Below are positions 1 through 17,424 of a stretch of DNA of 18,175 bases, in pieces (the stretch's first letter is position 1; each line of letters begins with the position of its first letter). The stretch is from the IMG/VR virus record IMGVR_UViG_2547132279_000005, one strand, 5' to 3'. The position numbers and the translations under genes are program-made. The notes below the pieces were generated by a model, which was not told the DNA's origin, ran no database searches, and saw only the letters and a program-made list of their open reading frames with translations. This DNA is from a virus. Lineage: Duplodnaviria; Heunggongvirae; Uroviricota; Caudoviricetes.

Positions 1-1450
<1,450 letters not shown>

Positions 1451-1464
1451 ATTGACAGAAAGCG

Positions 1465-2100
1465 ATGGATAAGGCATTCACCCGCGTGGATGAAACCTTT
1501 GAGGCCATCCGCGACAGCCTGAATCAGCAGGCCATCAATAACATCGCCAGAAAGCTGGCACAGGATTTACGCCGCGCCCAGCAGGCGCGTATCCGGTCAC
1601 AAAAAGCGCCGGACGGGACCGCGTGGACACCACGCAGACGCCGCGTAACCCGGATACAGGAACGCATTCGCTTTATCTGGAATAACGAAGCACGCACGCT
1701 GAAAAACTGGCATCACGACACGGGGAAATACGGGCGAACCATTACCGGGTGGGATGAGGATAAAAATAATATCCGCACGTTTTACCGGGATGACATCGAC
1801 CGTTTTCTGGAAATACGCACCCGGCGCATCAACCAGGACAGCACAAAGCGCGTCCCCATGTTCGTAAAACTGCGCACCGCCCGCTACCTGAAAGCCCGTG
1901 CAGATGCTTCCGGTGTGACGGTGGGTTACAGCGGCGTGGCCGCACGTATTGCCCGCGTTCATCAGTTCGGTGAGCGCGATCAGGTTGCGCCGGGCATTTT
2001 CACCGATTACCCGGTACGTGAGCTGCTGGGTATCAGCCAGGCAGATGAGCGCCTGATTTATAACACGGTGCTGGGCCGGATTGCGGAGGCTGTACGGTGA
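1465..2100 (+). CDS. Phage virion morphogenesis / tail completion protein (P2 gpS, Mu G family), possibly N-terminally altered by the IS insertion
   Basis: 211-aa ORF immediately upstream of and overlapping V (ggTGAgcg), which is the position of S in the P2 order R-S-V. An APDGTAWTP stretch resembles the conserved motif of this family. An in-frame stop at 1453-1455 lies inside the predicted IS end. Confidence 0.55.
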   Translation: MDKAFTRVDETFEAIRDSLNQQAINNIARKLAQDLRRAQQARIRSQKAPDGTAWTPRRRRVTRIQERIRFIWNNEARTLKNWHHDTGKYGRTITGWDEDKNNIRTFYRDDIDRFLEIRTRRINQDSTKRVPMFVKLRTARYLKARADASGVTVGYSGVAARIARVHQFGERDQVAPGIFTDYPVRELLGISQADERLIYNTVLGRIAEAVR

Positions 2101-2678
2101 GCGCAGAACTCATGCGACTGCTGAGCAATATCATCCGCACCGGGATCATCTCTGAAGTTGATGAGAAGTCCTGGCGCGTGCGCGTTCGCAGCGGCGAACT
2201 GGAAACAGGCTGGTTGCGCTGGAACACCACGCGCGCGGGAGCCTTCAATGTGTGGCTGCCGCCATCACCAGGCGAACAGGTGGTAATTGCCTGCATTGGC
2301 GGCAACCCGGAAACCGCCATGATAATTGGCAGCCTGTGGAGTGATACCAGTCCGGCACCCGGCAAAAGCCTGAAAGAAATCGTGATCAGCGCGCCGGACG
2401 GCGCGGTGTTCCGCTACGACGCGGACGCAGGCGCACTGAGCGCCAGCGGCATGAAAACGGCCACCCTGCAGGCATCCGTCAGCGTGAAACTGGATACGCC
2501 CGTCGTGGAATGCACAAACCTTCTGAGAACGGCGACGCTTGACGTCACAAAAGGAGGAAAGATGAGCGGCAATATCACGCACAGCGGCGGCAACTTCACC
2601 TCAAACGGCATTACCGTGCATACGCATAAACACGGTGGCGTGAAAGGCGGCGGCGATTCGACAGGAGGCCCGCAGTGA
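2097..2678 (+). CDS. V: Baseplate assembly / spike protein gpV
   Basis: 193 aa. Motifs IIRTGIISEVD, PDGAV and TKGGKMSGNITHSGG...SNGITVHTHKH match the P2 gpV pattern (NMIRTGII...VQKGGTMRGNIEHTGG...HTHKH). GTG start overlaps the upstream stop. Confidence 0.9.
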   Translation: MSAELMRLLSNIIRTGIISEVDEKSWRVRVRSGELETGWLRWNTTRAGAFNVWLPPSPGEQVVIACIGGNPETAMIIGSLWSDTSPAPGKSLKEIVISAPDGAVFRYDADAGALSASGMKTATLQASVSVKLDTPVVECTNLLRTATLDVTKGGKMSGNITHSGGNFTSNGITVHTHKHGGVKGGGDSTGGPQ

Positions 2679-3025
2679 CAACCCGCTACACAGGAATGAA
2701 CCCGGACGGAACGGGAAACCTGAATGATATGGAGCACCTGAAACAGTCAGTCAGGGACATCCTGACCACCCCGCTGGCAAGCCGGGTTATGCGACGGGAA
2801 TATGGCAGCCTTGTGCCTGATTTGATTGACGAACCCATGAATAACACCACGCGTCTGCAATGCATGAGTGCTGCCGTGATTGCGCTGACACGATGGGAAC
2901 CCCGCATTGCCCTGGATGCCATCGACGTTGTCTGGAAAGCGGGAGGCCGCGCCGGGGTGACACTGTCGGGCACTGTCATGCAGACCATGCAGAATGTTGA
3001 GTTAACCATCACGCTGAGGGAGTAA
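2675..3025 (+). CDS. W: Baseplate wedge protein gpW (gp25-like)
   Basis: 116 aa, similar to P2 gpW (MTARYLGMN...SRVMRRDYGS...WEPR). GTG start overlaps the V stop. Confidence 0.9.
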   Translation: MTTRYTGMNPDGTGNLNDMEHLKQSVRDILTTPLASRVMRREYGSLVPDLIDEPMNNTTRLQCMSAAVIALTRWEPRIALDAIDVVWKAGGRAGVTLSGTVMQTMQNVELTITLRE

Positions 3026-3028
3026 ATC

Positions 3029-3936
3029 ATGCCCGCCGTTGACCTTTCCCAGTTACCGGAACCCGCCATCATCGCGGAGCCTGACTTTGAAGCAATTCTG
3101 GCTGACACAAAAGCCATGATGATTGCGTCCTATCCCGCCGAACAGCGTGAAGCCGTTTCCGCCGCACTGGAGCTGGAATCGGAACCCCTTAACGTTATCG
3201 CTCAAACCATGTCGTTTCGTGAAATGCTGTTACGCCAGCGGGTCAATGAGGGTGCACGCGCCTGCATGTTAAGCCACAGCGCCGGGACAAACCTGGACAA
3301 CCTCGCAGGCAATATGAACACAAAGCGCCTGGTTATCACTCCGGCAACGGATACCACCGACGCAGTGATGGAAAGTGACACCTCGCTGAGACTGCGGGCG
3401 CAACGGGCGTATGACGGTCTGAGTGTTGCTGGCCCGTCAGGTGCATACGAGTATTTTGCACGCAGCGCCAGCGGTCTGGTACGCGACGCGCGGGCCATCA
3501 GTCCGTCTCCGGCAAATGTGACGGTTTCCATCCTGTCCACTGACTGTCCACTGAAGGCGACGGCACAGCAACGGAGGCGTTGCTTAATACCGTTCGCGCC
3601 GTTCTGAATGCAGAGGATACCCGCCCGGTGGCCGACCGCCTGACCGTACAGAGTGCCAGAATCGTGACATGGCGGCTGAATGCAAAACTGTACTTTTACC
3701 CCGGCCCGGAATCCGAACCTATTCTGGCCGCGGCTGAATCGTCGTTCAGGAAGTGGCTGGCTGAGCAGGGGCTTATCGGTCAGGACGTGGCGTTGTCCGC
3801 CATTGCTGCCGCACTGCATGTGCACGGTGTGCAACGCGTGGAGATAATCGAACCCACACAGAATATGGCCATCAGCGACATACAGGCGGCGCGCTGTGAG
3901 TCGTTCACCATCAGCGAAGGTGGGCGCAATGAGTAA
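3029..3936 (+). pseudogene. J: Baseplate protein gpJ, disrupted by an 11-bp tandem duplication causing a frameshift
   Basis: The J homologue is split between ORF 3029..3607 and ORF 3580..3936. CTGTCCACTGA occurs twice in perfect tandem at 3533-3543 and 3544-3554. Deleting one copy restores a single 299-codon frame reading ...VTVSILSTEGDGTATEALLNTVRAVLNAEDTRPVADRLTVQ..., colinear with P2 gpJ (...VTISVLS...VRPVADRVTVQ...). Confidence 0.85.
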
Positions 3937-4459
3937 TTCACTGTTACCACCATCAGCCAGCAGTTTCATGCGTTGTGCCGAAGCTGTCGGAACGCGCATT
4001 ACAGACATCCCGGTAGACCTCAACACGCTGTGGTCGCCGGACACCTGCCCGGTGCACCTGCTGCCTTATCTCGCCTGGGCATTTTCCGTTGACCGTTGGG
4101 ATCGCAACTGGCCGGAAGAGGCAAAACGACAGGTGATTCGTGATGCATGGCTGATACACCGACACAAAGGGACCATCAGCGCACTGCGCAGGGCCATTGA
4201 GCCGCTGGGATACCTCATTCGCGTGTCTGAGTGGTGGGAGTTCGGCGGAGAACCGGGAACATTTACCGTTGAAGTCGGCACACTGGACAGTGGCGTGACG
4301 GAGGAAATGTATCTGGAAATGGAGCGGTTGATTGCTGATGCCCGTCCGGTCAGCCGCCACATGACAGGGCTGAATATCATTCAGGAAATTCCGGGGGATA
4401 TTTTTGCAGCGGCGGCAACTTATGACGGTGAAGTTATTACCATTTATCCGGACGATTAA
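3929..4459 (+). CDS. I: Baseplate protein gpI
   Basis: Starts at ATG 3929, overlapping the J stop. WSPDTCPVHLLPYLAWAFSVDRWD and KRQVIRDAW...HKGTI...EMERLIADA closely match P2 gpI (WNPDTCPANLLPWLAWAFSVDRWD...). Confidence 0.9.
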   Translation: MSNSLLPPSASSFMRCAEAVGTRITDIPVDLNTLWSPDTCPVHLLPYLAWAFSVDRWDRNWPEEAKRQVIRDAWLIHRHKGTISALRRAIEPLGYLIRVSEWWEFGGEPGTFTVEVGTLDSGVTEEMYLEMERLIADARPVSRHMTGLNIIQEIPGDIFAAAATYDGEVITIYPDD

Positions 4460-4461
4460 GC

Positions 4462-6756
4462 ATGAGTACCACAACACGAAAATTTAAAACCGTTATCACC
4501 GATACAGGTGCCAAAAAATTAGCTCAGGCAGCCGCGCCAGATGGTAAGCCTGTTCGCCTGACTCATATGGCCGTGGGCGACGGTGGCGGCACGTTGCCCA
4601 CACCAGACAGTAAGCAGACCCGTCTGGTGCATGAGGTGTGGCGACACACAGTTAATCGCGTCATCCTGGACGCAACACATCAGAACCGCATTATTGCGGA
4701 GCTGGTTATTCCTCCTGAAACGGGCGGATTCTGGATCCGGGAAATTGGTGTATTTGATGAGCACGGCGATTTAATCGCGGTGGGCAATACTGCCGAAAGT
4801 TACAAGCCAGCCGTTGCTGAAGGGTCCGGTCGTGCACAAACATTTCGCACCATTCTGACCGTATCCAGCACGGCCACCGTGGCGCTTACCGTGGATAACA
4901 CCATGGTGATGGCCACAGTGGATTACGTGGATGACAAACTGAAAGAGCATGAACAGTCACGACGTCACCCGGACGCCTCGCTGACCGCAAAAGGCTTTGT
5001 TCAACTCAGTAGCGCCACTAACAGCGTGTCTGAAACGCAGGCTGCAACGCCGAAAGCGGTTAAGGCCGCATATGACCTGGCTAACGGAAAATATACCGCT
5101 CAGGACGCCACGACGGCACGAAAAGGCCTTGTCCAGCTCAGTAGCGCCACCAACAGCACGTCTGAAACGCAGGCTGCAACGCCGAAAGCAGTAAAGGCCG
5201 CGTATGACCTTGCTAACGCAAAATATACCGCTCAGGACGCCACGACGGCACAAAAAGGGATAGTCCAGCTCAGTAGTGCCACCAACAGCACGTCTGAAAC
5301 ACTGGCCGCGACATCGAAAGCGGTTAAGGCGGTAATGGATGAAACGAACAAGAAAGCGCCCTTAAACAGTCCTGCGCTGACCGGAACGCCAACAACACCA
5401 ACTGCGCGACAGGGAACGAATAATACCCAAATCGCAAGCACGGCTTTCGTTATGGCTGCGATTGCCGCCCTTGTAGATTCGTCACCTGACGCACTGAATA
5501 CGCTGAACGAGTTAGCGGCGGCGCTGGGAAACGACCCGAATTTTGCGACCACCATGACTAACGCGCTTGCGGGTAAGCAACCGAAAGATGCCACCCTGAC
5601 GGCGCTGGCCGGGCTTGCTACTGCGGCAGACAAGTTTCCGTATTTTACGGGGAATGATGTCGCCAGCCTGGCAACCCTGACAAAAGTCGGGCGGGATATT
5701 CTTGCGAAATCGACCGTTGCTGCCGTTATCGAATACCTCGGTTTACAGGAAACGGTAAACAGGGCTGGTAACGCCGTGCAAAAAAATGGCGATACCTTGT
5801 CCGGTGGGCTTACTTTTGAAAACGACTCAATCCTTGCCTGGATTCGAAATACTGACTGGGCAAAGATTGGTTTTAAAAATGATGCCGATAGCGATACTGA
5901 TTCATACATGTGGTTTGAAACAGGCGACAACGGCAATGAATATTTCAAATGGAGAAGCAAACAAAGCACCACAACAAAAGACCTGATGAATCTTAAATGG
6001 GATGCTTTGTCTGTTCTTGTTAAAGCCCTTTTCAGCAGTGAAGTAAAAATATCGACAGTCAATGCACTGAGGATATTTAATTCATCTTTTGGTGCCATTT
6101 TTCGCCGTTCTGAAGAATGCCTGCATATCATCCCTACACGAGAGAATGAGGGGGAAAATGGCGATATAGGGCCGCTACGCCCCTTTACGCTTAATCTCAG
6201 AACTGGTCGCATAAATATGGGGCATGGTCTGGATGTTACAGGAGATATAACAACTAACGCATGGGTGTACGCAAACCGCCTTGCAATTAACAGCAGTACA
6301 GGCATGTGGATTCATATGCGTGACCAGAATGTTATTTTTGGACGTAATGCGGTATCCACTGATGGTGCTCAGGCTTTGCTCCGTCAGGACCATGCCGACC
6401 GCAAATTTATGATTGGCGGTCTGGGAAATAAGCAATTTGGCATCTACATGATTAATAACTCAAGGACAGCCAATGGCACCGATGGTCAGGCGTACATGGA
6501 CAATAACGGTAACTGGCTTTGCGGTGCGCAAATTATTCCCGGAAATTATGGCAATTTTGACTCACGCTATGTGAGAGATGTCCGACTTGGCACACGTGTT
6601 GTTCGATTGATGGCGCGTGGAGGGCGTTATGAAATAGCCGGACACGCACTTACCGGATTAAGGATTATTGGTGAAGTTGATGGCGATGATGAAGCTATCT
6701 TCAGGCCGATACAAAAATACATCAATGGCATATGGTATAACGTCGCACAGGTGTAA
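4462..6756 (+). CDS. H: Tail fibre protein gpH (constant N-terminal part fused to the currently expressed variable C-terminal segment)
   Basis: 764 aa. The N-terminus (MSTTTRKFKTVITDTGAKKLAQAA) and overall architecture are gpH-like, with 44-aa tandem repeats. The gix-like crossover site lies in frame at codons VIEYLGLQE (5725-5751). The C-terminus ends ...RPIQKYINGIWYN.., the same motif as the alternative cassette. Confidence 0.9.
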   Translation: MSTTTRKFKTVITDTGAKKLAQAAAPDGKPVRLTHMAVGDGGGTLPTPDSKQTRLVHEVWRHTVNRVILDATHQNRIIAELVIPPETGGFWIREIGVFDEHGDLIAVGNTAESYKPAVAEGSGRAQTFRTILTVSSTATVALTVDNTMVMATVDYVDDKLKEHEQSRRHPDASLTAKGFVQLSSATNSVSETQAATPKAVKAAYDLANGKYTAQDATTARKGLVQLSSATNSTSETQAATPKAVKAAYDLANAKYTAQDATTAQKGIVQLSSATNSTSETLAATSKAVKAVMDETNKKAPLNSPALTGTPTTPTARQGTNNTQIASTAFVMAAIAALVDSSPDALNTLNELAAALGNDPNFATTMTNALAGKQPKDATLTALAGLATAADKFPYFTGNDVASLATLTKVGRDILAKSTVAAVIEYLGLQETVNRAGNAVQKNGDTLSGGLTFENDSILAWIRNTDWAKIGFKNDADSDTDSYMWFETGDNGNEYFKWRSKQSTTTKDLMNLKWDALSVLVKALFSSEVKISTVNALRIFNSSFGAIFRRSEECLHIIPTRENEGENGDIGPLRPFTLNLRTGRINMGHGLDVTGDITTNAWVYANRLAINSSTGMWIHMRDQNVIFGRNAVSTDGAQALLRQDHADRKFMIGGLGNKQFGIYMINNSRTANGTDGQAYMDNNGNWLCGAQIIPGNYGNFDSRYVRDVRLGTRVVRLMARGGRYEIAGHALTGLRIIGEVDGDDEAIFRPIQKYINGIWYNVAQV
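4989..5340 (+). repeat. About three tandem copies of a 132-bp (44-aa) coding repeat inside H
   Basis: Units begin near 4989, 5121 and 5252 and encode KG(F/L/I)VQLSSATNS(V/T)SETQAATPKAVKAAYDLAN(G/A)KYTAQDATTA(R/Q); the third copy is diverged. Confidence 0.85.
5726..5751. promoter_or_regulatory. Left gix/hix-like invertase crossover site, inside H
   Basis: TTATCGAATACCTCGGTTTACAGGAA matches the reverse complement of the site at 8797-8822 at 24 of 26 positions, and has the two-half-site layout around a central dinucleotide seen in Gin/Hin/Cin sites. Confidence 0.85.
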
Positions 6757-6759
6757 ATT

Positions 6760-7287
6760 ATGCAGCATTTAAAAAATATTAAGTCTGGAAATCCAAAAAC
6801 AAAAGAACAATATCAGCTAACAAAGAATTTTGATGTTATCTGGTTATGGTCCGAAGACGGAAAAAACTGGTATGAGGAAGTGAAAAACTTTCAGCCAGAC
6901 ACAATAAAGATTGTTTACGATGCAAATAATATTATTGTCGCCATCACCAAAGATGCCTCCACGCTTAACCCTGAAGGTTATAGCGTCGTTGAGGTTCCTG
7001 ATATTACAGCTAATCGTCGTGCTGATGATTCCGGTAAGTGGATATTTAAGGACGGAGCTGTGGTTAAACGGATTTATACGGCAGACGAGCAACAACAACA
7101 GGCCGAATCACAAAAGGCCGCGTTACTTTCCGAAGCAGAAAACGTTATTCAGCCACTGGAACGCGCTGTCAGGCTGAATATGGCGACGGATGAGGAACGC
7201 GCACGACTGGAGTCATGGGAACGCTATAGTGTTCTGGTCAGCCGTGTGGATACGGCAAATCCTGAATGGCCACAAAAGCCTGAATAA
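6760..7287 (+). CDS. G: Tail fibre assembly chaperone (P2 gpG / Mu U / Tfa family), paired with the current fibre C-terminus
   Basis: 175 aa, immediately downstream of H. The N-terminus [24 protein letters not shown] is paralogous to the minus-strand gene at 7316..7849. Confidence 0.85.
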
Positions 7288-7292
7288 AAATT

Positions 7293-7312
7293 AAGGCCCG
7301 ATAGCGGGCCTT
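7293..7312. terminator. Bidirectional hairpin terminator between the convergent tfa genes
   Basis: AAGGCCCG-ATAG-CGGGCCTT stem-loop, flanked by an A-run upstream and a T-rich tract downstream, between the stops of the two convergent chaperone genes. Confidence 0.6.
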
Positions 7313-7315
7313 GTT

Positions 7316-7849
7316 TCATTCTGGTTGTTCTGGAAACGTTACTGGCAGGCTGTAGGTGTCTGTGGATTCGACCTTCTGCGCATAGAGCATCCACTCGGTT
7401 AATTTTTGTTTATTCTCGTCGGAAATGATACCCAGCCGTAGCTGTGAGTCCCATAGCTGGGTTTTATCCCTGACAAGTTGCAACAGGCTTTGCTTTTCAT
7501 TCTCTGCCTGCTGCCTCTGTTCCTCCTCGGTATAAGTTCGCTTTATCACTACGCCATCTTTGAACATCCATTTACCCGAAATATCAGCCCGGCGATTTGC
7601 TGTAATATCAGGTAATTCAACGACGCTTGCGCCTTCTGGATTAATTGCTGAAACATCCTTTTCAATACAAATAATAACGCCGTTACGGTCATAGACCATT
7701 TTCAACGTATCAGGCTGAAAGTTCTTTTGTTCCTCATACCAGTTTTTTCCATCATCTGAATAAAGCCATTTGATGTTAAATTGTTTCGTTAGCTGGTATT
7801 GCTCTTTTGTTTTAGGGTTGCCAGCAGTAATGTTTTTTAAGTGCATCAT
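7316..7849 (-). CDS. Alternative tail fibre assembly chaperone (Tfa'/U'-like)
   Basis: 177 aa. N-terminus [24 protein letters not shown] and central [10 protein letters not shown] are paralogous to the plus-strand tfa. Lies immediately downstream of the alternative fibre segment. Confidence 0.85.
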   Translation of the reverse strand: MMHLKNITAGNPKTKEQYQLTKQFNIKWLYSDDGKNWYEEQKNFQPDTLKMVYDRNGVIICIEKDVSAINPEGASVVELPDITANRRADISGKWMFKDGVVIKRTYTEEEQRQQAENEKQSLLQLVRDKTQLWDSQLRLGIISDENKQKLTEWMLYAQKVESTDTYSLPVTFPEQPE

Positions 7850-7851
7850 AA

Positions 7852-8796
7852 TTAAATACTCCCCGCGTTATACCACCTTCCATTAATGCAATACTGAATT
7901 GGCCTTGCCTGAGTTGTATCAATTAATTCATCACGGTTTCCGTTAACTGAACCCGTAACGACATAACCTGACCTGTCAGACCAGCCGGGACCATTCCATG
8001 TCTGAACAGATGACAGACCGCCCAGGCGAATACCTGTAATAAACCTTGAGTTACATTCTGCCTGCGTATATGCACCAACATCCCCCGCAGAGGGTTTGCG
8101 GGTTGTGGTGTAAAACTCTGACCAGTTAGCTTCAAAGCCATAACCATCACGCGCTGAACGATAAAAGATACCGCCGTTTTTATAATTCACGCGGAACTGT
8201 ACAGCAGGGCAACTCCCCGCATTCATATTAAAGTGGAGGATTAATGTCGATGCGCCACTGATATCTGCATCATAAACGCCGCTATTCCAGTTCCAGCCAA
8301 CAGCTTTATCATTTGCAACCCTGCTTCCTGTTTGCCCTAAAGCAAATGCAGGCTGCTGGTTTTTCGTGTTGTAGTCTCGTCGCCAGCCAGGAGCATAAGC
8401 ATCACCATGATTAATATAGGTGAATTGAGCGTTAGTAATTCCGCCACCGCTGGATGTACTCGGCGTAGTAACGCGTATGGTCATTGCGCCGCGAGTGCCA
8501 ATAACTTCCACCACAGCACCTGCAAGACAAATATTTCCGCAACCTGTATCTGTAATGACCTTATTGTTTGCATAAGCCCATGAGCCTTTGCACATCCAGT
8601 AAGGATGGTTAAATGCCCCCTGACTCTCCAGCCACGAAATGAATTGTGCGGTTGTCCAGGTCTGACTATCGCCACCAATATTCAGCCATGCGCTATATGC
8701 GCGGCAGGCACCAATATTTTTGGTGAAGGTATCTTTTCCTGGAATATCTGCGCCGTTCTGTTTTTTCTGTAATGCACCAGAAGCCTGATTTACCGT
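7852..8796 (-). CDS. Promoterless alternative tail-fibre C-terminal segment (Hv'), expressed only after inversion fuses it to the constant part of H
   Basis: The minus-strand frame is open from the right crossover site (8797-8822) to the stop at 7852. Reading across the site gives ...QETVNQASGALQKKQNGADIP...MCKGSWAYANNKV..., in frame with H codons ...VIEYLGLQE. It ends ...RPIQYCINGRWYN.., like the current C-terminus. Confidence 0.8.
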   Translation of the reverse strand, partial: TVNQASGALQKKQNGADIPGKDTFTKNIGACRAYSAWLNIGGDSQTWTTAQFISWLESQGAFNHPYWMCKGSWAYANNKVITDTGCGNICLAGAVVEVIGTRGAMTIRVTTPSTSSGGGITNAQFTYINHGDAYAPGWRRDYNTKNQQPAFALGQTGSRVANDKAVGWNWNSGVYDADISGASTLILHFNMNAGSCPAVQFRVNYKNGGIFYRSARDGYGFEANWSEFYTTTRKPSAGDVGAYTQAECNSRFITGIRLGGLSSVQTWNGPGWSDRSGYVVTGSVNGNRDELIDTTQARPIQYCINGRWYNAGSI

Positions 8797-8822
8797 TTCC
8801 TGTAAACCGAGGTTTTAGATAA
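8797..8822. promoter_or_regulatory. Right gix/hix-like invertase crossover site
   Basis: TTCCTGTAAACCGAGGTTTTAGATAA closely matches the remembered Mu/P1 gix-cix sequence (TTCCTGTAAACCGAGGTTTTGGATAA). It lies about 55 bp upstream of the invertase start, as in Mu. Confidence 0.85.
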
Positions 8823-8876
8823 TGGCCGTTTCTGGCCTGCATGGCATGATTTGCGCTTTTGGACGGGAGATTCAGT

Positions 8877-9464
8877 GTGCTGATTGGCTATGTAAGGGTA
8901 TCAACAAATGACCAGAATACAGACCTGCAACGAAACGCTCTTGTTTGTGCAGGATGTGAACAGATATTTGAAGATAAATTAAGCGGGACAAAGACAGACC
9001 GACCGGGATTAAAACGCGCTTTAAAGCGCCTTCAAAAAGGTGACACGCTGGTTGTCTGGAAACTGGATCGCCTCGGGCGAAGCATGAAACATCTGATTTC
9101 TCTCGTCGGGGAACTACGGGAGCGAGGGATTAATTTTCGCAGTCTGACCGACAGCATAGATACATCTTCTCCAATGGGGCGTTTTTTCTTCCACGTGATG
9201 GGGGCCCTGGCTGAAATGGAACGTGAATTAATTGTTGAACGTACACTGGCCGGACTGGCGGCAGCGCGCGCACGGGGGCGCACAGGCGGACGTCGACCGA
9301 AGCTGACAAAAGAACAGCATGAGCAAATAGCAAGGCTGATTAAAAACGGTCACGACAGAAAACAACTGGCAATAATTTACGGCATTGGTATATCGACGAT
9401 TTATCGTTACCACCCCGCAGGAGAACCAAGCGGAACAATTGAGAAGAGTCAGGAAACAAAATAA
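8877..9464 (+). CDS. Site-specific DNA invertase, serine recombinase of the Hin/Gin/Cin/Pin family
   Basis: LIGYVRVSTNDQNTDLQRNAL...GDTLVVWKLDRLGRSMKHL...MGRFFFHVMGALAEMERELIVERTLAGLAAARARGRTGGRRPKLT is near-identical in pattern to Hin/Gin, including the catalytic serine in VRVST. GTG 8877 is preferred as the start; the ORF track begins at TTG 8859. Confidence 0.9.
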   Translation: MLIGYVRVSTNDQNTDLQRNALVCAGCEQIFEDKLSGTKTDRPGLKRALKRLQKGDTLVVWKLDRLGRSMKHLISLVGELRERGINFRSLTDSIDTSSPMGRFFFHVMGALAEMERELIVERTLAGLAAARARGRTGGRRPKLTKEQHEQIARLIKNGHDRKQLAIIYGIGISTIYRYHPAGEPSGTIEKSQETK

Positions 9465-9494
9465 CCGCTAATCTGACCATTAGCGGTTTTTGTG
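9464..9494. terminator. Bidirectional rho-independent terminator between the invertase (+) and U (-)
   Basis: ACCGCTAAT-CTGACC-ATTAGCGGT stem-loop followed by TTTTGTG on the plus strand and by a T-rich run on the minus strand, between two convergent stop codons. Confidence 0.75.
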
Positions 9495-9499
9495 TTAAA

Positions 9500-9994
9500 T
9501 CAGAACATCCCTTTAACTGAACTGGCCGCGCTGTTAAGAGATGATGTCACCTTATCTTTGAAGCCGGACAGCATATCGCTGAATGATGAGGATTGCAGGC
9601 GCTCCCGCAAATCCTCATCACAGCGTTCAAGTGTCAGTGAAAATTCTATCTTTTTCGCCTTACCGTAGCGATCAAACTCGGAACGGGTCGTATTCGTTCC
9701 GGTCAGGACATACATGCCGTAAATCTGCCCGACACCATCAATCAGAGGCCAGGGGCGTCCTGTATATGCCTGCGTGGTCAGCAGCGAAAGCGACACTTCG
9801 CCACCTGTAATTTCAGGATAAAGCACGCCAGAAAGCACGATGCGATCATCACCTGCACCGATATACTGCCAGCTTGCTGAGCGGTTTACGCGCTCATTTT
9901 TCACATGCCGCCAGCTTTTGTTTTGCTGTAACTGCTGATGCGGCAATGTGCGCAGCTCAAAAACAAACATGCCGTAGATCATCATCATGGCCAT
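9500..9994 (-). CDS. U: Tail protein gpU
   Basis: 164 aa. MAMMMIYGMFVFELRTLPHQQLQQNKSWRH...LSGVLYPEITGG matches P2 gpU (MMMVLGLFVFMLRTVPYQELQYQRSWRH...LSGVLLPEVTGG). The start overlaps the T stop. Confidence 0.9.
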   Translation of the reverse strand: MAMMMIYGMFVFELRTLPHQQLQQNKSWRHVKNERVNRSASWQYIGAGDDRIVLSGVLYPEITGGEVSLSLLTTQAYTGRPWPLIDGVGQIYGMYVLTGTNTTRSEFDRYGKAKKIEFSLTLERCDEDLRERLQSSSFSDMLSGFKDKVTSSLNSAASSVKGMF

Positions 9995-10000
9995 GACTCC

Positions 10001-12844
10001 TCAATCTTTATCGTAAAAACTGCCACGTCCGGCACGGGCGCGCTGTTCCATTTCTGCCCTGACCATTTCACCGACCAGTTTCGCCAGTTCGCGGGGATTC
10101 TGTGTAACAACGTTATGCAGATGAACATGAATTTCACCGCCAAATCCGGAGGCAACAGGCTCCCGGTTACGGGAATTTGCAGGAACTGATGCCACTGGCG
10201 ATCGTATAGCCTCTGCCACCGGGCGGGAGCTGGCCGCAACAACAGGGACCAGCGCCGGAGGCAGCGGAGCCGGAACCACGGGTGTGATAGTAATTGCGGG
10301 GGCAGGCTTACTGACCTGCGCAATCTTCCGCTCCTGCCACTCCCCACGAACAGCAAGTGCGCGGGGCAGGTTCTTAAAGACAATATCACCGGGGCCAATG
10401 CGTTTTTTCGTCTCATCAACCAGCTTACCTGTGTTATCAGCAATTTTGCTGAGTCTGCGTAGCGTACCGGTATTGCTGTCTGTGAGTGGTTTGTTGTCTT
10501 TGGGTTTATCACCTCCGGTGCCATTGCCATTTTCCACAGGCTTCGGCGGATTGATTTTCGCCAGGTCCCCCTGAAGCAAGGCAACCTTGTCCTGAAGAAT
10601 GGCCGCACGCTGTGCGTCTTCGATTTTCTTGCGCGCCCTTTCAGCTTCATCCGGAAGGACGCCAAGTTTTTCAAGTATCCACGCCAGCGTATCCAGTAGC
10701 ATTTTTGCAGGTGTCAGAACAAGCTGTAACGCACCGCCAAGAACGTTACCGAATATCTCGCCAGCACTGGTACATTTATCCAGCGTTTCCTTACTGGACT
10801 CCATCGGTGACAGCAGCGATTTAAACCAGTTAAACACCTGGCTGATCCCGCTTCCGATTGCGTCAAAAACAGGGCCAAACCGTTCAAAGGTTTCGCGCAA
10901 CGGAGCCAGCCGTTCCATAATCCCACTGAACACCCCTGCATAAAACGCCTTGATGGGTTCCCAGTATTTCCAGATGAGAACCGCCGCAGCCACAAACGCA
11001 GCAGCAATCAATCCGACCGGACTGAACAGCGCCCCGATAGCGCCTCCCAGTAACGAAATGGAACCCGTCACCATTCCCCATAATGCAGGCAGAACCCTGA
11101 CAACATTCAATGATCCGGTCAGGAGGGAAAAACCAAGACGCAGTTTTGCCAGTGGGCCAGCAAGCACACCAATAGCCAGCGACAACGAGCCTATGGTTGC
11201 AGTCATTGCCAGCAGAGCACCGCCTGCAACCAGTAGCTGGCGCGTCAGTGCCGGATGGGCCTGCGCCAGCGCCGTCACCTTCGATACCACCCGCGTGAGC
11301 CACTGCGTGACAGAACGCTGCGGACCGTCAATCAGATCTGCAATGCGGATGCGCACCCCTTCCCATGCACTGCCGAGTGATTTCAGATCGCCGTCAAGGT
11401 TGTTGGCCATAACCTTTGCTGTGCGTTCAGCCTCACCGCGCGCGCCTTCAAGTTCTTTTCTCAGTTTGGGTAAGGAGCCGTCACCTGCCGCATCAACGAG
11501 GGCCATAAATGATGTGAAAGCCTCTTCTCCGGCAATATCCTTAAAGAACGATACCCGGTCAACTTCCCCGTATTTGCGGGTGGCTTTATAAAGGTCAGCC
11601 AGCAGATCTTCCATCGGGCGCATTTTGCCGTTCGCGTCAGAGACGGACACGCCCAGCTCTTTCAGCGCCTCTGCTGCTGCCTTTGGCGGTGATGCCAGAC
11701 GAGCCAGGCTGGCACGCATTGCCGTCCCGGCATCACTCCCTCTGATACCCATATTCGCCAGCACGCCAGCCATCGCTGCAGCCTGCTCCAGCGATATTCC
11801 CAGCTTACCCGCCACCGGACCGGCATATTTCATGGTTTCGCCCAGTGCGCGAAGGTCAGTGTTGGTACGGGTAAACGCTGCAGTGAGTGTGTCACCGACC
11901 CGGTCCATCTGGTCAGCAGAAAGGCCGAACTGCGTCAGGATATTTGAGCCAATATCCGCCGTCTCGCCGAGATCCATACCGCCAGCCGTTGCCATGCTCA
12001 ACACGCCGGGAAGCGCAGCCTGAATGGCCTGCGGTGTGAAGCCAGCCATTGCAAGAAATGCCTGCCCACTGGCGGCATCGCCTGCGGTGAACTGCGTTTC
12101 AGAGCCAAGTTTTAACGCCTGCTCACGCAGCGCCTTAAACTGCGGGCTGTTCTGGTCGATTCGCGTCAGCGCCTGAACGCGGGACATCTCTTTCCCGAAC
12201 CCGATTGCGGGCTGCAAAAAACGCCCGGCAGCATAGCCGCCCGCCGCTGCCGCACCAATTGCCAGTACACCACCTGTTTTCAGTTTTCCCGCTGTTTCCT
12301 GCGCACGCGAATACCGCTCACGCGCCCGCGTTACACGCGCAAGCGACTGCCGTTCGCGTTCAAGCTGGTTGTTGTACTGTTCGGTGCGCCTGATGGCCTG
12401 TTGAATGGTGTTATCGCTGCCTGTCAGGGAAATGCCGTGGCGTTTCAGCTCTCCGCCAAGCTCCCGCATTTTCTGAATTTCCCGTATGCGCGATTCATTC
12501 AGGCGTTCAAGCCGGGTGCTTAACTGCTGCATCAGCTTTTGTTGCTTTTCGCTGAGCACTGTACCCGTGCGTTGTAACTGATTAAGGGCGTTAAGCTGGC
12601 GTCGTGCTTTCACGATACCCGCATCCGCTTTACTGACAGCGTCGCGGGCGCGCTCAAATGAACGCGCCTGACGCTCGAGATTTTTGATCGCCCCCTGCGT
12701 TCGCTGGATGGAGTCACCAAACTGCCCCATCAGGCGGCGGGCGTTTTCGGCAGGCCGGGTCAGCCTGTCAACGGCGCTGAAAGCGACCCGGATATCAAGA
12801 GTCTTCATTGTCTGCATTCCCGCTGCGAAGTGCCGCCCGCTCAC
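10001..12844 (-). CDS. T: Tail tape measure protein gpT
   Basis: 947 aa, coiled-coil-rich N-terminus with central hydrophobic and glycine-rich segments, positioned between E/E' and U. The true start may be an internal Met (MQTMK or MKTLD), since the E' frame overlaps the 5' end. Confidence 0.85.
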   Translation of the reverse strand: MSGRHFAAGMQTMKTLDIRVAFSAVDRLTRPAENARRLMGQFGDSIQRTQGAIKNLERQARSFERARDAVSKADAGIVKARRQLNALNQLQRTGTVLSEKQQKLMQQLSTRLERLNESRIREIQKMRELGGELKRHGISLTGSDNTIQQAIRRTEQYNNQLERERQSLARVTRARERYSRAQETAGKLKTGGVLAIGAAAAGGYAAGRFLQPAIGFGKEMSRVQALTRIDQNSPQFKALREQALKLGSETQFTAGDAASGQAFLAMAGFTPQAIQAALPGVLSMATAGGMDLGETADIGSNILTQFGLSADQMDRVGDTLTAAFTRTNTDLRALGETMKYAGPVAGKLGISLEQAAAMAGVLANMGIRGSDAGTAMRASLARLASPPKAAAEALKELGVSVSDANGKMRPMEDLLADLYKATRKYGEVDRVSFFKDIAGEEAFTSFMALVDAAGDGSLPKLRKELEGARGEAERTAKVMANNLDGDLKSLGSAWEGVRIRIADLIDGPQRSVTQWLTRVVSKVTALAQAHPALTRQLLVAGGALLAMTATIGSLSLAIGVLAGPLAKLRLGFSLLTGSLNVVRVLPALWGMVTGSISLLGGAIGALFSPVGLIAAAFVAAAVLIWKYWEPIKAFYAGVFSGIMERLAPLRETFERFGPVFDAIGSGISQVFNWFKSLLSPMESSKETLDKCTSAGEIFGNVLGGALQLVLTPAKMLLDTLAWILEKLGVLPDEAERARKKIEDAQRAAILQDKVALLQGDLAKINPPKPVENGNGTGGDKPKDNKPLTDSNTGTLRRLSKIADNTGKLVDETKKRIGPGDIVFKNLPRALAVRGEWQERKIAQVSKPAPAITITPVVPAPLPPALVPVVAASSRPVAEAIRSPVASVPANSRNREPVASGFGGEIHVHLHNVVTQNPRELAKLVGEMVRAEMEQRARAGRGSFYDKD

Positions 12845-13031
12845 GCCAGCTAACCACTTCGCCGGGCGTCATCATGAAGATTTCGGCGGGCGACCAGTTA
12901 AAAATAACGGCAATATCTGCCACAAAGTCTTCTATGTGCTCAAAGCACACAACCGTGATCAGGCTTCCGTCGCCTGTTCGTTCTTCCCGCCAGAGTCCGC
13001 ACCGCTCAAAAAATTTACGGCAACCACACAT
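12795..13031 (-). CDS. E' frame: C-terminal extension of the tail assembly chaperone, reached by -1 programmed frameshift from E
   Basis: This -1 frame overlaps the 3' end of E and runs into the T start region. The slippery heptamer TTTTTTG is on the coding strand at 13007-13013. Same arrangement as P2 E/E'. Confidence 0.75.
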   Translation of the reverse strand: MCGCRKFFERCGLWREERTGDGSLITVVCFEHIEDFVADIAVIFNWSPAEIFMMTPGEVVSWRERAALRSGNADNEDS

Positions 13032-13324
13032 AACTGAATAAAGTCACGGGATGCCATTTTTTTGATCGTCACTTCATCCAGTCGCGGTGATGTCACGCGT
13101 GACAGCAGCGTAAACATGGATTCCGCTTTCAGACTCAGCACATCAGACAGCGACAAATCTCGCAGAGATCCAGCCTGCTCAATAGCCCCGGTGATCTCCA
13201 CATACGTGATTTTTTCGCCGCTTCGCTCAATTGGTTGGGTAAGTTTTACGCCACGCTCACTGGTTTCTTTCACAGTGTCAGTAACTACCGTGTTTTCGGT
13301 ATCGATGTTTTTCGTCTCTTTCAT
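12959..13324 (-). CDS. E: Tail assembly chaperone gpE
   Basis: 121 aa, acidic, between FII and T. The slippery site lies near the 3' end (...AVNFLSGADSGGKNEQATEA). Confidence 0.8.
   Translation of the reverse strand: MKETKNIDTENTVVTDTVKETSERGVKLTQPIERSGEKITYVEITGAIEQAGSLRDLSLSDVLSLKAESMFTLLSRVTSPRLDEVTIKKMASRDFIQLCVVAVNFLSGADSGGKNEQATEA
13007..13013 (-). promoter_or_regulatory. -1 programmed ribosomal frameshift slippery site (T TTT TTG) for E to E+E'
   Basis: The coding strand reads AAA TTT TTT GAG; the E frame continues N-F-L-S and the -1 frame continues F-F-E-R into the E' ORF. Confidence 0.75.
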
Positions 13325-13378
13325 CAGGAAACTCCTTTCAGTCAGAGGCGACGCACTGCGCCGCCTGCATATTACTTA

Positions 13379-13891
13379 TCAGCCAAGCCCAAGCGCGGAA
13401 CGGATGCGATCGGGCACAATGTCCTTGCCGTCCTTCCGGTAAATGAAGTTCAGCAGGTCAATCTCCCACAACGGGCGATCGTTAACACTCAGCTTGTAGT
13501 AGGTGTTTTTAATGGCATAAGTGTGTGATGTGGCTTCGCCCTGTTTGGCTTCCCCCATATCAATTTCCGTCACACGTCCGCGCATTTCGACTTCATACAG
13601 GTCGCTTTCTGCATCGGTGTAGTATTCACCTGCAAAACGCAGCAGTGTGCCGTCAATCGTGCCGCCATACTTAAGGAACAGCTCACGAACTGCGCCCCCC
13701 ATGACAAAGCTCGCATCAAGCGCGGAGTCGTCCAGGCCGAGATCAATACTTACCGCCCCCATCATGCCACCACCCCGGTAGCTGTCGGTTTTGCGCGTCA
13801 GCTTAGGCAGAGTGACGGACGTCACCTTACCCACTTCGTTTTCACCATCCACAAACAGCGTAAAAAAGCGAAGATGTTTTGGCACAGCCAT
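13379..13891 (-). CDS. FII: Tail tube protein gpFII
   Basis: 170 aa. SVTLPKLTRKTDSYRGGGMMGAVSIDLGLDD matches P2 FII (SVTLPKLTRKLENYRGAGMNGSAPVDLGLDD). Confidence 0.9.
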   Translation of the reverse strand: MAVPKHLRFFTLFVDGENEVGKVTSVTLPKLTRKTDSYRGGGMMGAVSIDLGLDDSALDASFVMGGAVRELFLKYGGTIDGTLLRFAGEYYTDAESDLYEVEMRGRVTEIDMGEAKQGEATSHTYAIKNTYYKLSVNDRPLWEIDLLNFIYRKDGKDIVPDRIRSALGLG

Positions 13892-15075
13892 CAGGCACCT
13901 CCCAGCACCGCAAATGCGGGTTCAAAGTATTCATCAGTAAACGTCTGGTAAAGCTCCATGTCTTCCAGTGGCGGAACGGGCGTATATTTGTAGCGAATAC
14001 GCACACGTCCCTGACGTAAATCCGTGGTGCTGTTATCCACCACGTCATACCAGCACTCCGCGCCAATCAGTTTCCCGGCAGTAACCAGTGAATCCAGTTT
14101 TGCCCTGATGGCACTGATAACATCCTTCACGTTCGCAGGCGTCAGTGGACTGTCGATGGTTTCAAACTGCGCTTCCGCAATTGAATCAGCCAGCACCTGT
14201 GCGGTTCGGGTATACACCTCAAAGATGTAGGCGTTCGTTTCCGGTGTGCGGTTGCCCCAGAAGCGGAACCCGTTGCGACGAATAATGGTCGTGATTTCTT
14301 TGTTGTTGAGGCTGTTGGCATCGCTGTCTTCGGCCTGCAACGACCAGAACACATGCCTCGACATCCCCAGCACATTTTTAACCGGAACGTTGGACAGTGA
14401 TTTGTGCCATCCCTGCTCATGGTCAATGTACGCACGAAGGCCGCACGCATAGGCAGGCGCGGGGAACGTTTCGTTTTTGCCACTTTTCGGGTTGTAGGCG
14501 ATGAAGTCCGGCCATAAGAGCATCACCTCACGTTCGTTGAATTTCTGGCGGTAGGTAATCGCCTCAGCCATCGTGTTACAGCCGTGACATGAGGCATACA
14601 CAAACGCGCGCAGTTTACCTGCAATCACGCACAGGGATTTTGTTACAGCCTCCGTGTCCAGCTCCGGCGCGGCCAGAATACGCGGACGGTATCCGATGCT
14701 TTCATCCTGCTCTGCAACAAGCAGCGCATACATCCCCGTATAGCTGCCGTCATCCTCAGAACCACCGATAACCAGTTGATCCTGCGTCTTTCCGTCTTCT
14801 TCTTTGTGTTCAGCCACGCGAACGACGATCACCTTTGTGCTCACCTGGTCTGCGATGGCCTTAAGCGCACGATAAAGCGTCCCCGTTGTCCCGCATTTTC
14901 CCAGCACGTCATTGACGCGGGTCAGCAGTGTGGGCTTGTTCAGCGGGAACAGCTTCGCGTCCGCATCATCCGCCGTTGCCACGATACCGATAACGCTGGA
15001 ATCAACATCGTTAATCGCTGTTACCAGGTCGGTATTTTCCGTAACACGGGCACCATGAAAACGAGTTTCACTCAT
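13891..15075 (-). CDS. FI: Contractile tail sheath protein gpFI
   Basis: 394 aa with FPLNKP, KLRAF, GWHKSLSNV, IRRNGFRFWGNRT, YTRTAQV and YTPVPPLE, all matching the P2 FI pattern. Confidence 0.9.
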   Translation of the reverse strand: MSETRFHGARVTENTDLVTAINDVDSSVIGIVATADDADAKLFPLNKPTLLTRVNDVLGKCGTTGTLYRALKAIADQVSTKVIVVRVAEHKEEDGKTQDQLVIGGSEDDGSYTGMYALLVAEQDESIGYRPRILAAPELDTEAVTKSLCVIAGKLRAFVYASCHGCNTMAEAITYRQKFNEREVMLLWPDFIAYNPKSGKNETFPAPAYACGLRAYIDHEQGWHKSLSNVPVKNVLGMSRHVFWSLQAEDSDANSLNNKEITTIIRRNGFRFWGNRTPETNAYIFEVYTRTAQVLADSIAEAQFETIDSPLTPANVKDVISAIRAKLDSLVTAGKLIGAECWYDVVDNSTTDLRQGRVRIRYKYTPVPPLEDMELYQTFTDEYFEPAFAVLGGA

Positions 15076-15232
15076 AGCTTCAGCCCCTTGTATCCGTTAA
15101 ATGATTCGGCAACAATCATCACCCACCACGCGCGTAATCTCACCCCTGCGCCGTTCTCCCGTCACGGCGACAACAAAAAGCAGTAACCCCCTCCGCACGC
15201 ACATGCGACCATGCCGCACAGGGAGGGAACAG

Positions 15233-16342
15233 ATGACCGATACCACCATGCAATTGCTCAGTCAGGGCACAGACCCCGTGAAAATGCCGGATTTTGATAT
15301 TCTCGCGGAGGGTAAAACGCTGTCAGGCGTGGCCGAGCGCCTGATGAGCCTGTCACTGACCGACAACCGGGGATTTGAGGCGGACCAGCTCACCATCACG
15401 CTGGATGATGCGGATGGTCAGTTGCAGCTACCGCCACGGGGCGCGCGCCTGACGGTTCTCATTGGCTGGAAAGGAGAACCGCTGACAGAAAAAGGCACTT
15501 ACATTGTTGATGAAATCGCTCACGAAGGACCGCCGGACAGGCTGACTGTTTCAGCCAGAAGCGCAGATTTTCGGGATGAATTTAACGTTAAACGTGAGGT
15601 GTCCTGGCATGATGTGACCATTGAGCGTGTGGTATCCGCCATCGCTCATCGGTATGGTCTGAAACCGCAAATCAGCGAAATGCTGATGGATATCGAAATC
15701 GACCACGCCGACCAGACTGAAGAAAGCGACATGTCCTTCCTTACGCGCATGGCGGAAATGCTGGGCGCAATCACCACGGTAAAAAGCGGTAATCTGTTAT
15801 TCATCATGCCCGGCGGTGGCGTGAACGCACAGGGCCAGCCGTTGCCATCGTTCGCCATCACACGCAGCAGCGGCGATCGCCATCAGTTCCGCATTGCTGA
15901 CCGCGAGGCGTATACGGGGGTACGCGCTTACTGGCTTGATCTTAATTACGGGAAAAAGAAAAAAGTCAGCGTGAAACGCCGCAAACCGCCAAAACCCAAA
16001 AAGGAGAAAAGCAGCAGCCGTGAAGGTGATTATATGGAAGGCGCGGAAGGCAATGTGTTTGTGTTACGCAAGACTTATCAGAACGAGCAGGCAGCAAGAC
16101 GCGCAGCGGCGGCAAAGTGGCAGCAGCTACAACGCGGAGCCGCATCATTCTCCATCACGCTGGCGCGTGGACGCGCAGAACTCTATCCCGAAATGCATGG
16201 CACGGTGAAAGGCTTCAAAAGTGACATCGACAATCAGGACTGGATTATTGCAAAAGCTGAGCACACCATTGATAACAGCGGCTTTACCACACAGCTTGAG
16301 CTTGAGGCAAAAATCCCGGAATGGATAGCGGAAACAGAGTGA
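15233..16342 (+). CDS. D: Tail protein gpD (late control gene D / baseplate hub)
   Basis: LMSLSLTDNRGFEADQLTITLDDADGQLQLPPRGARLTVLIGWKG, RSADFR, SDMSFLTRMAE and a lysine-rich linker followed by EGDYMEGAEGNVF are colinear with P2 gpD. Start chosen at ATG 15233, preceded by GGGAGGG; the ORF track extends upstream to 15101. Confidence 0.85.
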   Translation: MTDTTMQLLSQGTDPVKMPDFDILAEGKTLSGVAERLMSLSLTDNRGFEADQLTITLDDADGQLQLPPRGARLTVLIGWKGEPLTEKGTYIVDEIAHEGPPDRLTVSARSADFRDEFNVKREVSWHDVTIERVVSAIAHRYGLKPQISEMLMDIEIDHADQTEESDMSFLTRMAEMLGAITTVKSGNLLFIMPGGGVNAQGQPLPSFAITRSSGDRHQFRIADREAYTGVRAYWLDLNYGKKKKVSVKRRKPPKPKKEKSSSREGDYMEGAEGNVFVLRKTYQNEQAARRAAAAKWQQLQRGAASFSITLARGRAELYPEMHGTVKGFKSDIDNQDWIIAKAEHTIDNSGFTTQLELEAKIPEWIAETE

Positions 16343-16384
16343 AGAACTTAGAATAGCGGCAGCACCACGTTAAGGGAGGTCGCT

Positions 16385-16645
16385 ATGTTCCGTTGTCCGC
16401 TTTGTGGCGCATCTGCCCGTATCCGCACCAGTCGTCCGGAAAATGATTCAAACACCGTGCGGCAAAAGTATTACCAGTGTAACAACCTGGAATGCGGCGT
16501 ATGCTTCTCAACACTGGAAGCCTTCCATAAATTCACATCGAAACACGCCTCCGGCGTTCACTCATCAGAAGGTATTCCGTGGCATGAGCTGCCAGCTTCA
16601 CACAGGGGAAACAATCAGATGAGTTTGCCTTTACCTCAGAATTAA
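16385..16645 (+). CDS. ogr: Ogr/Delta-family zinc-finger late transcription activator
   Basis: MFRCPLCGASARIRTSRPENDSNTVRQKYYQCNNLEC has the same CxxC...CxxxxC layout and ARTSR motif as P2 Ogr (MFHCPLCQHAAHARTSR...YHQCQNVNC). Preceded by an AGGGAGG Shine-Dalgarno sequence. Confidence 0.85.
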   Translation: MFRCPLCGASARIRTSRPENDSNTVRQKYYQCNNLECGVCFSTLEAFHKFTSKHASGVHSSEGIPWHELPASHRGNNQMSLPLPQN

Positions 16646-16718
16646 CAGGCAGAATTGCCGGAGTAACAAAAAAGCGATAGATTACGCGCGGGTGCCTTTC
16701 GGCTGATGGTCGGAGGGA

Positions 16719-16916
16719 ATGCCCGAAGGCCAGATGTGGAAAGGCCCCGGAAAACATCTCTGTTTAACCGAGGCCCTAACCGTCTACCTAGCAAGTGATA
16801 GGTTAGCGCCTCCCCGAAAAAGGAGCAAGCGCTATGTCGCAAAAATCGCTTACAGCCATCACGTTCTGTGTGACGGCAATCCTCATCATCTGGATGCTGC
16901 ACGGCTCGCTGTGTGA
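16719..16916 (+). CDS. mok-like overlapping reading frame upstream of and overlapping the hok-like gene
   Basis: A 65-codon ORF begins 115 nt upstream of the hok-like start and overlaps it in another frame, as mok does in hok/sok loci. There is no independent sequence support. Confidence 0.35.
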   Translation: MPEGQMWKGPGKHLCLTEALTVYLASDRLAPPRKRSKRYVAKIAYSHHVLCDGNPHHLDAARLAV

Positions 16917-16974
16917 AATACGGATGAACTTCTGGGGAGCGGAGTTTGCGGCGTTCTTACAGTGTAAACAGTAA
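16834..16974 (+). CDS. Hok/Gef-family type I toxin (small membrane protein)
   Basis: The 46-aa product MSQKSLTAITFCVTAILIIWMLHGSLCEIRMNFWGAEFAAFLQCKQ has an N-terminal transmembrane segment and the family motifs SLCE(I/L)R and AAFL.CK (compare Hok RKSLCEIR; HokA ...WMIRDSLCEL...ELAAFLACK). SD is AAGGAG. A 9-bp-stem hairpin at 16984-17007 lies just downstream. Confidence 0.75.
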   Translation: MSQKSLTAITFCVTAILIIWMLHGSLCEIRMNFWGAEFAAFLQCKQ

Positions 16975-17064
16975 GGAAACCGCGACGGGGGAAGAGATTC
17001 CCCCGTCAATCGGTTGCCAGGGTAAGGTCGATAAGGCACCCTATCTCACAGACATGAACAACAA

Positions 17065-17098
17065 ACCCGCAGCGTAAAAACTGCGGGTTTTCTTTTTG
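17065..17098 (+). terminator. Rho-independent terminator downstream of the hok-like gene
   Basis: ACCCGCAG-CGTAAAAA-CTGCGGGT stem-loop followed by TTTCTTTTTG. Confidence 0.75.
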
Positions 17099-17144
17099 CT
17101 ACCCTCACAAATGAGGGCACCATACATAAGCAATAGGCATAACA

Positions 17145-17182
17145 GATCGATGCAATAAATCCGATCGATAAAAACGATCGAT
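17145..17182. promoter_or_regulatory. Cluster of three GATCGAT motifs (Dam GATC sites) in the com-like promoter region
   Basis: GATC at 17145-17148, 17163-17166 and 17176-17179, each within GATCGAT, spaced 18 and 13 bp apart, 45-80 bp upstream of the com-like start. Confidence 0.6.
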
Positions 17183-17226
17183 TTGTTATCATATCGGCAG
17201 CAGTAACCACACAAGAGGTGCCGCAA

Positions 17227-17424
17227 ATGACGCAAAATGTACGATGCAAAAATTGCAACAAACTACTTGCCCGCGCCTCATTTCACTACATTGAAATAAA
17301 ATGTCCGCGCTGCAAAACACTTAACCAGATAACGAGAGCCATCGAGCACCCCACACACATGAGGAGTTATGACCGTGGGGATCGCAATCCAGCACCAACC
17401 AGCACATACACCGGAACACACTAA
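17227..17424 (+). CDS. com: Com-like zinc-finger translational regulator (Mu Com homologue)
   Basis: MTQNVRCKNCNKLLARASFHYIEIKCPRCK matches Mu Com (MKSIRCKNCNKLLFKADSFDHIEIRCPRCK), with four Cys in a CxxC...CxxC layout. SD AAGAGG lies 9 nt upstream of ATG 17227. The 3' end overlaps the methyltransferase start. Confidence 0.85.
   Translation: MTQNVRCKNCNKLLARASFHYIEIKCPRCKTLNQITRAIEHPTHMRSYDRGDRNPAPTSTYTGTH
17349..17380 (+). promoter_or_regulatory. RNA hairpin enclosing the methyltransferase Shine-Dalgarno sequence and start codons (candidate Com target)
   Basis: CCCCAC (17349-17354) and GTGGGG (17375-17380) are exactly complementary. They flank GAGGAG (17361-17366) and ATG 17369, and the in-frame GTG 17375 is part of the 3' arm. 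Confidence 0.45.

Follow-up and report, generated by a model that had tools for sequence, protein, structure and literature searches.

An 11-bp tandem duplication breaks the reading frame of the baseplate gene J in a prophage of ETEC strain TW10828

The window analysed here, i.e. the whole stretch of 18,175 nucleotides, corresponds to contig AELC01000001.1 (GCA_000166575.2) from position 1. The AELC assembly belongs to ETEC strain TW10828, an isolate from Guinea-Bissau obtained in 1996 (PMC4309559). Positions 1458-17097 form one colinear block with nucleotides 19569-35188 of phage P88 at 97.4% identity, and this alignment covers both the inverted FI-U genes and the invertible fibre segment. 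Judged by its sequence, the element is a P88-like (Xuanwuvirus), P2-related prophage next to raiA; raiA and bamD lie just beyond the window, which places the right end of the prophage about 150 bp past position 18175. The genes S, V, W, I, H and G, the alternative fibre and assembly genes, the invertase gene, U, T, E', E, FII, FI, D, ogr and hok all have the lengths found in P88 or in close relatives, and J is the sole broken ORF across 1458-17097. As in P2 and P88, J (3029-3936) sits between W and I (Table 1).

Table 1 Features of the prophage region in the window.
Feature	Position	Strand	Remarks
IS100, right part (IS21 family)	1-1457	+	1,457 bp; 3' part of istA and complete istB (609-1391)
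Gene R, 3' remnant (tail completion)	1458-1472	+	last 15 nt, four codons plus stop; window 1458 = P88 19569, P88 R ends at 19583
Gene S (tail completion / virion morphogenesis)	1465-2100	+	211 aa, full length; start codon overlaps end of R
Gene V (baseplate spike)	2097-2678	+	193 aa, full length; overlaps S at 2097-2100
Gene W (gp25-like baseplate wedge / sheath initiator)	2675-3025	+	116 aa, full length
J pseudogene, 5' fragment	3029-3607	+	192 codons; stop TGA 3605-3607
Copy 1 of CTGTCCACTGA	3533-3543	+	counterpart of the sole copy in all homologues
Copy 2 of CTGTCCACTGA	3544-3554	+	inserted copy; missing in every related sequence compared; shifts J frame
J pseudogene, 3' part in shifted frame	3544-3936	+	native gpJ residues 172-298; stop 3934-3936
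Gene I (triplex partner of gpJ, tail-fibre anchor)	3929-4459	+	176 aa, full length; start overlaps end of J
Gene H (tail fibre)	4462-6756	+	764 aa, full length
Opposed fibre-assembly genes	6760-7287, 7316-7849	+, -	
Alternative fibre C-terminus	7852-8595	-	
Resolvase-family DNA invertase	8877-9464		
Right-end accessory block	16834-18175		hok/gef 46 aa, Com zinc-ribbon 65 aa, N6/N4 DNA methyltransferase 268 aa

The tail-fibre gene H contains a 132-bp tandem repeat at 4989-5330 (2.6 copies, 88% identity), which presumably represents a repeated fibre-shaft motif (Pfam Phage_fiber_2), and a P2/P88-like prophage of strain ETEC-2264 aligns over this repeat in several registers. All ORFs of the invertible tail-fibre segment (6760-9464) are intact and of P88 length. 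The FI-FII-E-E'-T-U tail operon (9500-15075) lies on the minus strand and is thus inverted relative to P2, an arrangement shared with P88 and other relatives. At the right end, the methyltransferase ORF stops at the last base of the window; the block of hok, Com and methyltransferase genes was also found in two further loci (L001 and L027) and is absent from P88 and ETEC-2264.

The left edge of the window is occupied by IS100. The contig begins inside this element, and the window shows the prophage only to its right. The right end of IS100, at 1457, falls within the final 15 nt of R and 7 nt upstream of the start of S, and the native sequence upstream of S is replaced. The junction between IS100 and the prophage was absent from all 5,426 complete E. 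coli genomes searched (RefSeq; the complete genome of TW10828 is not part of this set). The insertion is a second lesion of the late region, independent of the one in J. Since S overlaps V (2097-2100) in P88-like phages, IS100 may be polar on S-V-W-J-I-H-G and may lower transcription of the whole block.

ETEC-2264 has been reported as the closest strain to TW10828, and we considered it as a carrier of the same prophage. This was rejected, as its prophage (L025, NZ_CP023349.1) lies at a different site (tRNA-Leu/pgsA) and has an intact J. The IS100 part in the window is 100% identical to the 1,954-bp IS100 copy of ETEC-2264, which is located in the P2/P88-like prophage of that strain between U and T (L025 27119-29072) and is flanked by a 5-bp target duplication at window-equivalent 10033-10037. 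The R gene of ETEC-2264 has an internal stop. Decay of the ETEC-2264 prophage is parallel to, but independent of, that in TW10828.

Within J, direct reading of the window sequence gave two copies of CTGTCCACTGA arranged head to tail, the order at the site being ...TTTCCATC, then CTGTCCACTGA, CTGTCCACTGA and AGGCGACGG..., with ...GGTTTCCATC as the longer 5' flank of the pair. Tandem Repeats Finder returned the same structure with a period of 11, 2.0 copies and 100% matches. The repeat is exactly 22 bp long and its boundaries are unambiguous, as neither C3532 nor A3555 extends it. Copy 1 comprises the codons L169, S170 and T171 and two further bases, the first two of codon 172. It ends in the TGA at 3541-3543, the stop that bounds the downstream frame at its 5' end. 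By chance, a perfect tandem repeat of an 11-mer would occur about 0.004 times per 18,175 random bases, and three such repeats in total were found across 300 mononucleotide shuffles. The only other near match to the 11-mer within the window is a single one on the opposite strand at 14142, with one mismatch.

With regard to the origin of the duplication, the sequence around the site contains no flanking microhomology. The internal repeats CTG...CTG and TCCA...TCCA were rejected as a source, since they would yield duplications of 7 bp or 9 bp instead of 11 bp, and a hairpin-driven origin was rejected likewise, as the single-copy context folded as DNA gave no significant hairpin (z = -0.95). We infer the mutational mechanism, and neither microhomology nor a hairpin accounts for the origin of the second copy. 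The site offers a clear-cut case of a short tandem duplication that lacks microhomology at its flanks.

The duplication shifts the frame of J at codon 172 of 298 and leaves the final 127 codons out of frame. The product of the 5' fragment consists of residues 1-171 of native gpJ followed by 21 out-of-frame missense residues (172-192, DCPLKATAQQRRRCLIPFAPF). The 3' part, with TTG 3580 and GTG 3628 as candidate internal starts, is nucleotide-identical to the intact J genes of four related loci (L032, L033, L035 and L036). The two frames overlap across 3544-3607 (64 nt), and a shift of -1 would be required to pass from one to the other. Deletion of one copy gives an 897-bp ORF of 298 codons and brings back the precise wild-type allele. 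In amino-acid sequence, the restored protein equals the intact ETEC-2264 J and shares 98-99% identity with J of the other prophages in the comparison; it also matches the Pfam family PF04865 (Baseplate_J) with 69.8 bits and E=2.9e-19. In the interrupted gene, the Baseplate_J profile is split between the fragments, one of which matches positions 112-171 and the other 180-255, and the precomputed Pfam assignments are Baseplate_J_N for the 5' ORF and Baseplate_J_C for the 3' ORF.

The first-pass annotation had read this site as a perfect 11-bp tandem duplication at 3533-3554 that splits J over two overlapping ORFs, with removal of one copy restoring a single frame colinear with P2 gpJ. The whole reading holds: Tandem Repeats Finder and direct inspection agree on the repeat, the two ORFs are 3029-3607 and the frame open over 3544-3936, and the restored 298-aa protein aligns with P2 gpJ end to end at 55% identity. 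Full-length colinearity with P2 gpJ and the pyocin protein PA0618 is obtained only once one 11-bp copy is removed, and the window has no uninterrupted ORF for the whole protein (frameshift at codon 172, stop at 3605-3607). J of this prophage is a pseudogene of the Baseplate J / P2 gpJ / Mu gp47 / pyocin Tri1 family and not a functional member, and as a practical consequence it should be annotated in TW10828 as a frameshifted pseudogene.

Single-copy sequences were found in all relatives compared. A J gene was present in 1,016 records of the 5,426 complete E. coli genomes with a best identity of 97.2%, and the best 40 of these 1,016 all span 897 bp, not 908 bp. A 131-nt query with the site at its centre reached at most 90.8% identity, and all matches listed had subjects of 118-120 nt, i.e. 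a single copy; judged by the subject lengths in the matches listed, 1,006 E. coli records lack 11 bases relative to the window. A 40-nt query that seeded only across the two-copy junction gave no match in the 5,426 complete E. coli genomes. All 13 phage records compared, including P88, 500465-2, PhiR44_2 and Shae_phiSM, were single-copy as well, and the exact 22-mer had no match in the IMG/VR viral contigs. When metagenome and GTDB-representative collections were scanned, the 22-mer was met at three loci, one in a Chlorobiaceae MAG and two in metagenome contigs, which were dismissed as unrelated, their flanks being unlike J.

Assemblies with C-terminal J products of 118 aa or 102 aa were considered as co-carriers and rejected, as they do not contain the duplication and represent contig-edge calls or other J lesions. 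Their breakpoints cluster shortly before GTG 3628 because the look-up, made with that exact product, selected for such cases. Seven draft contigs begin at window-equivalent 3577, exactly 3 bp upstream of TTG 3580, and have a different gpI allele (202 aa); their common start is probably an assembly-graph break at a mosaic boundary common to two P2-like prophages and not a biological lesion.

An H protein identical to that of the window is encoded by 13 contigs. J is an intact 298-aa ORF in the four identical-H loci inspected other than the window (L032, L033, L035 and L036, representing twelve contigs). Three of them (L032, L033 and L036, all from draft genomes) are base-for-base the same as window positions 3308-7352 save for the 11 additional bp, and not one substitution relative to these relatives is present in the 381 nt that the shift has put out of frame. 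With some 4 kb otherwise identical and no decay behind the lesion, the duplication is very recent. No related phage or prophage has the two-copy sequence, in keeping with the interpretation of the first-pass annotation. These comparisons show that one copy is the ancestral state of J and that the duplication is private to strain TW10828, and we regard them as stronger evidence for an insertion than the repeat statistics.

The first-pass annotation had also raised the concern of an assembly artefact, in which case the true genome of TW10828 would have a single 11-mer. The window indeed stems from a 2010-era draft assembly (AELC01), and the duplication occurs in no other genome. An 11-bp duplication outside a homopolymer is, however, an atypical error for 454 or nanopore sequencing. 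Moreover, a later nanopore de novo assembly from another laboratory encodes the identical 192-aa product, including the out-of-frame tail of 21 residues, as WNT85102.1 / QMY51_03961 on a 4.95-Mb contig. The locus tags that begin with QMY51 belong to GCA_032368225.1, the complete genome of TW10828, which was produced from R10.4 nanopore reads at >100x by Flye de novo assembly, Medaka polishing and Prokka annotation (PMC10761095). The same frameshifted J product was thus obtained with two platforms and two assemblers, 13 years apart and in different laboratories. This agreement between two independent assemblies places the duplication in the DNA of the strain, and we consider the probability of an artefact to be negligible. 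Since both assemblies derive from the same strain stock, the mutation could date from nature or from culture of the stock.

We also weighed explanations in which the two-copy sequence is not simply a loss-of-function mutation. The 64-nt overlap of the frames and the required shift of -1 would be compatible with a programmed frameshift in 3544-3607 that makes full-length J with a small insertion. However, this segment contains no slippery heptamer of the type X XXY YYZ and no homopolymer run of four or more, it has no notable local structure (z = -0.95), and the roughly 1,000 E. coli and 13 phage homologues are single 897-bp ORFs. As an alternative to recoding, the fragments may join in trans, with complementation conceivable between a truncated N-terminal fragment and a C-terminal domain translated from its own start: a start at GTG 3628 would give residues 197-298, which nearly match the independently folding C-terminal domain of PA0618 crystallised as 5CES. 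Such a product would nevertheless miss the highly conserved residues 172-196, and the N-terminal fragment would have the missense tail of 21 residues at its end. Recoding or a split gene is accordingly an explanation to which we give hardly any credence.

A reversible ON/OFF switch by slippage, in which cells that lose one copy regain particle production in a manner similar to phase variation, would be in line with the instability of tandem duplications, with the fact that exact loss of one copy recreates the wild-type allele and with the integrity of the remaining tail module. A phase-variable locus would be expected to vary in copy number among strains or within populations, but there are only two copies here, the roughly 1,000 homologues all have exactly one, and both TW10828 assemblies report two. 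In addition, the arrangement shows no sign of selection, and IS100 in R, upstream of S, would persist after reversion. We therefore judge a switch to be very unlikely. The 11-bp repeat may also be viewed as the target-site duplication of an IS that was once present in J and has since been lost. The lack of flanking microhomology, which would have favoured simple slippage, and the active IS elements of the strain, with IS100 in the same prophage, speak for this view, and some IS4-family elements produce target duplications of 10-13 bp. Yet the two copies abut with no trace of an IS between them, an IS at this site in J is seen in no related genome, and E. coli rarely loses an IS cleanly with both target copies left behind, all of which makes a transposition footprint exceedingly improbable. 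On a more speculative note, the two-copy allele might be metastable and serve as a crude reversible switch of particle production in the ETEC lineage or, separately, be the record of a vanished IS; the data favour neither idea, and both appear very doubtful. If the allele was metastable, a small fraction of cells could regain tail production via precise loss of one copy at low frequency.

The explanation that we prefer, with a probability of about 0.9, is that a spontaneous and very recent 11-bp duplication in J of this P88-like prophage abolishes gpJ and hence the production of particles. The duplication shifts the frame at codon 172, and translation ends after 171 native and 21 wrong residues. 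The frameshift removes the most conserved stretch of the protein (residues ~172-205 in the alignment with PA0618) together with the C-terminal domain, and neither segment would be made as part of the same protein. The P2 baseplate comprises six heterotrimeric wedges; each combines two gpJ with one gpI, the subunit by which the tail fibre is anchored (bioRxiv 10.64898/2026.09.14.750843). As each wedge requires two full-length gpJ and one gpI, wedges, baseplates and tails would be expected to fail in assembly. Loss of gpJ function should thus entail absence of tails, and the prophage would yield neither infectious particles nor a working tailocin unless one copy is lost again. The earlier description of gpJ as a baseplate component is consistent with its place as a core part of the P2 wedge and with the full-length match of restored J to the pyocin protein Tri1.

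The first-pass annotation had further inferred a decaying or domesticated prophage from J and an IS at the left edge, with accessory genes kept intact. The IS is real, namely IS100 with its right end at 1457, and the ORFs of hok, com, the methyltransferase and the invertase are intact. Decay is supported by the frameshift in J and by IS100 in R. Domestication, on the other hand, is not: a domesticated tailocin would be expected to retain an intact tail and baseplate module while losing head and replication genes, and it is exactly this module that is damaged here, J by the frameshift and R by IS100. The duplication in J is an ordinary, strain-private pseudogenising event and an early step of prophage decay. 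It provides one dated decay step of a P2/P88-like prophage in an ETEC strain that is under study, and its wider importance is small. TW10828 would not be expected to release phage or tailocin from this prophage, which could matter for bacterial competition experiments with this strain, e.g. those in PMC10761095.

Among known systems, the closest counterpart of the interrupted gene is J of P88 (gp37, YP_009113080.1; Xuanwuvirus, Peduoviridae), which has the same position in the S-V-W-J-I-H-G order. Once one copy is removed from the window sequence, both genes are 897 bp long; they share 95.4% nucleotide identity with the 11-bp gap counted, and 98% protein identity for the restored form. P88 has a single CTGTCCACTGA and an intact ORF of 298 aa, whereas the window has two copies and a frameshift. 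P2 gpJ (NP_046773.1) is an intact protein of 302 aa and a more distant allele, to which restored J aligns with one 4-residue indel; the W-J-I-H-G neighbourhood and the structural role in the wedge are the same in P2, and the FI-U tail operon of P2 runs in the other direction from that of the window and P88. The relationship extends to the R-type pyocin protein Tri1 (PA0618; PDB 6U5B/6U5K), which restored J matches over its full length with E=3e-74 (residues 4-297 versus 3-294) and whose C-terminal domain was crystallised separately as 5CES. Tri1 is an intact tailocin component of Pseudomonas, whereas J in the window is a broken prophage gene of E. coli.

Other E. coli P2-like prophages have broken J genes as well. 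At six such loci (L010, L011, L012, L014, L015 and L019), none of which has the 11-bp duplication, the lesions were a premature stop without indel, a 1-bp deletion and 5' truncations; three multi-indel cases (L013, L016 and L018) may be long-read sequencing errors. Two of the six loci come from unusually large chromosomes, L015 (CP050218.1, 7.05 Mb) and L012 (CP050215.1, 5.98 Mb), in which J is 5'-truncated at J nucleotides 496 and 530, respectively. The break in L015 (at about 3900-3920) precedes the 11-mer by only 9 bp and has an integrase fragment and IS1 genes as neighbours, and that in L012 adjoins a fes-like gene with IS1 genes close by; that both breaks lie near the duplication site seems to reflect selection by the look-up. 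The different lesions by which J is broken in these genomes show that inactivation of J is a common route of prophage decay, and the inactivation of tail genes is a routine path in the decay of P2-like prophages.
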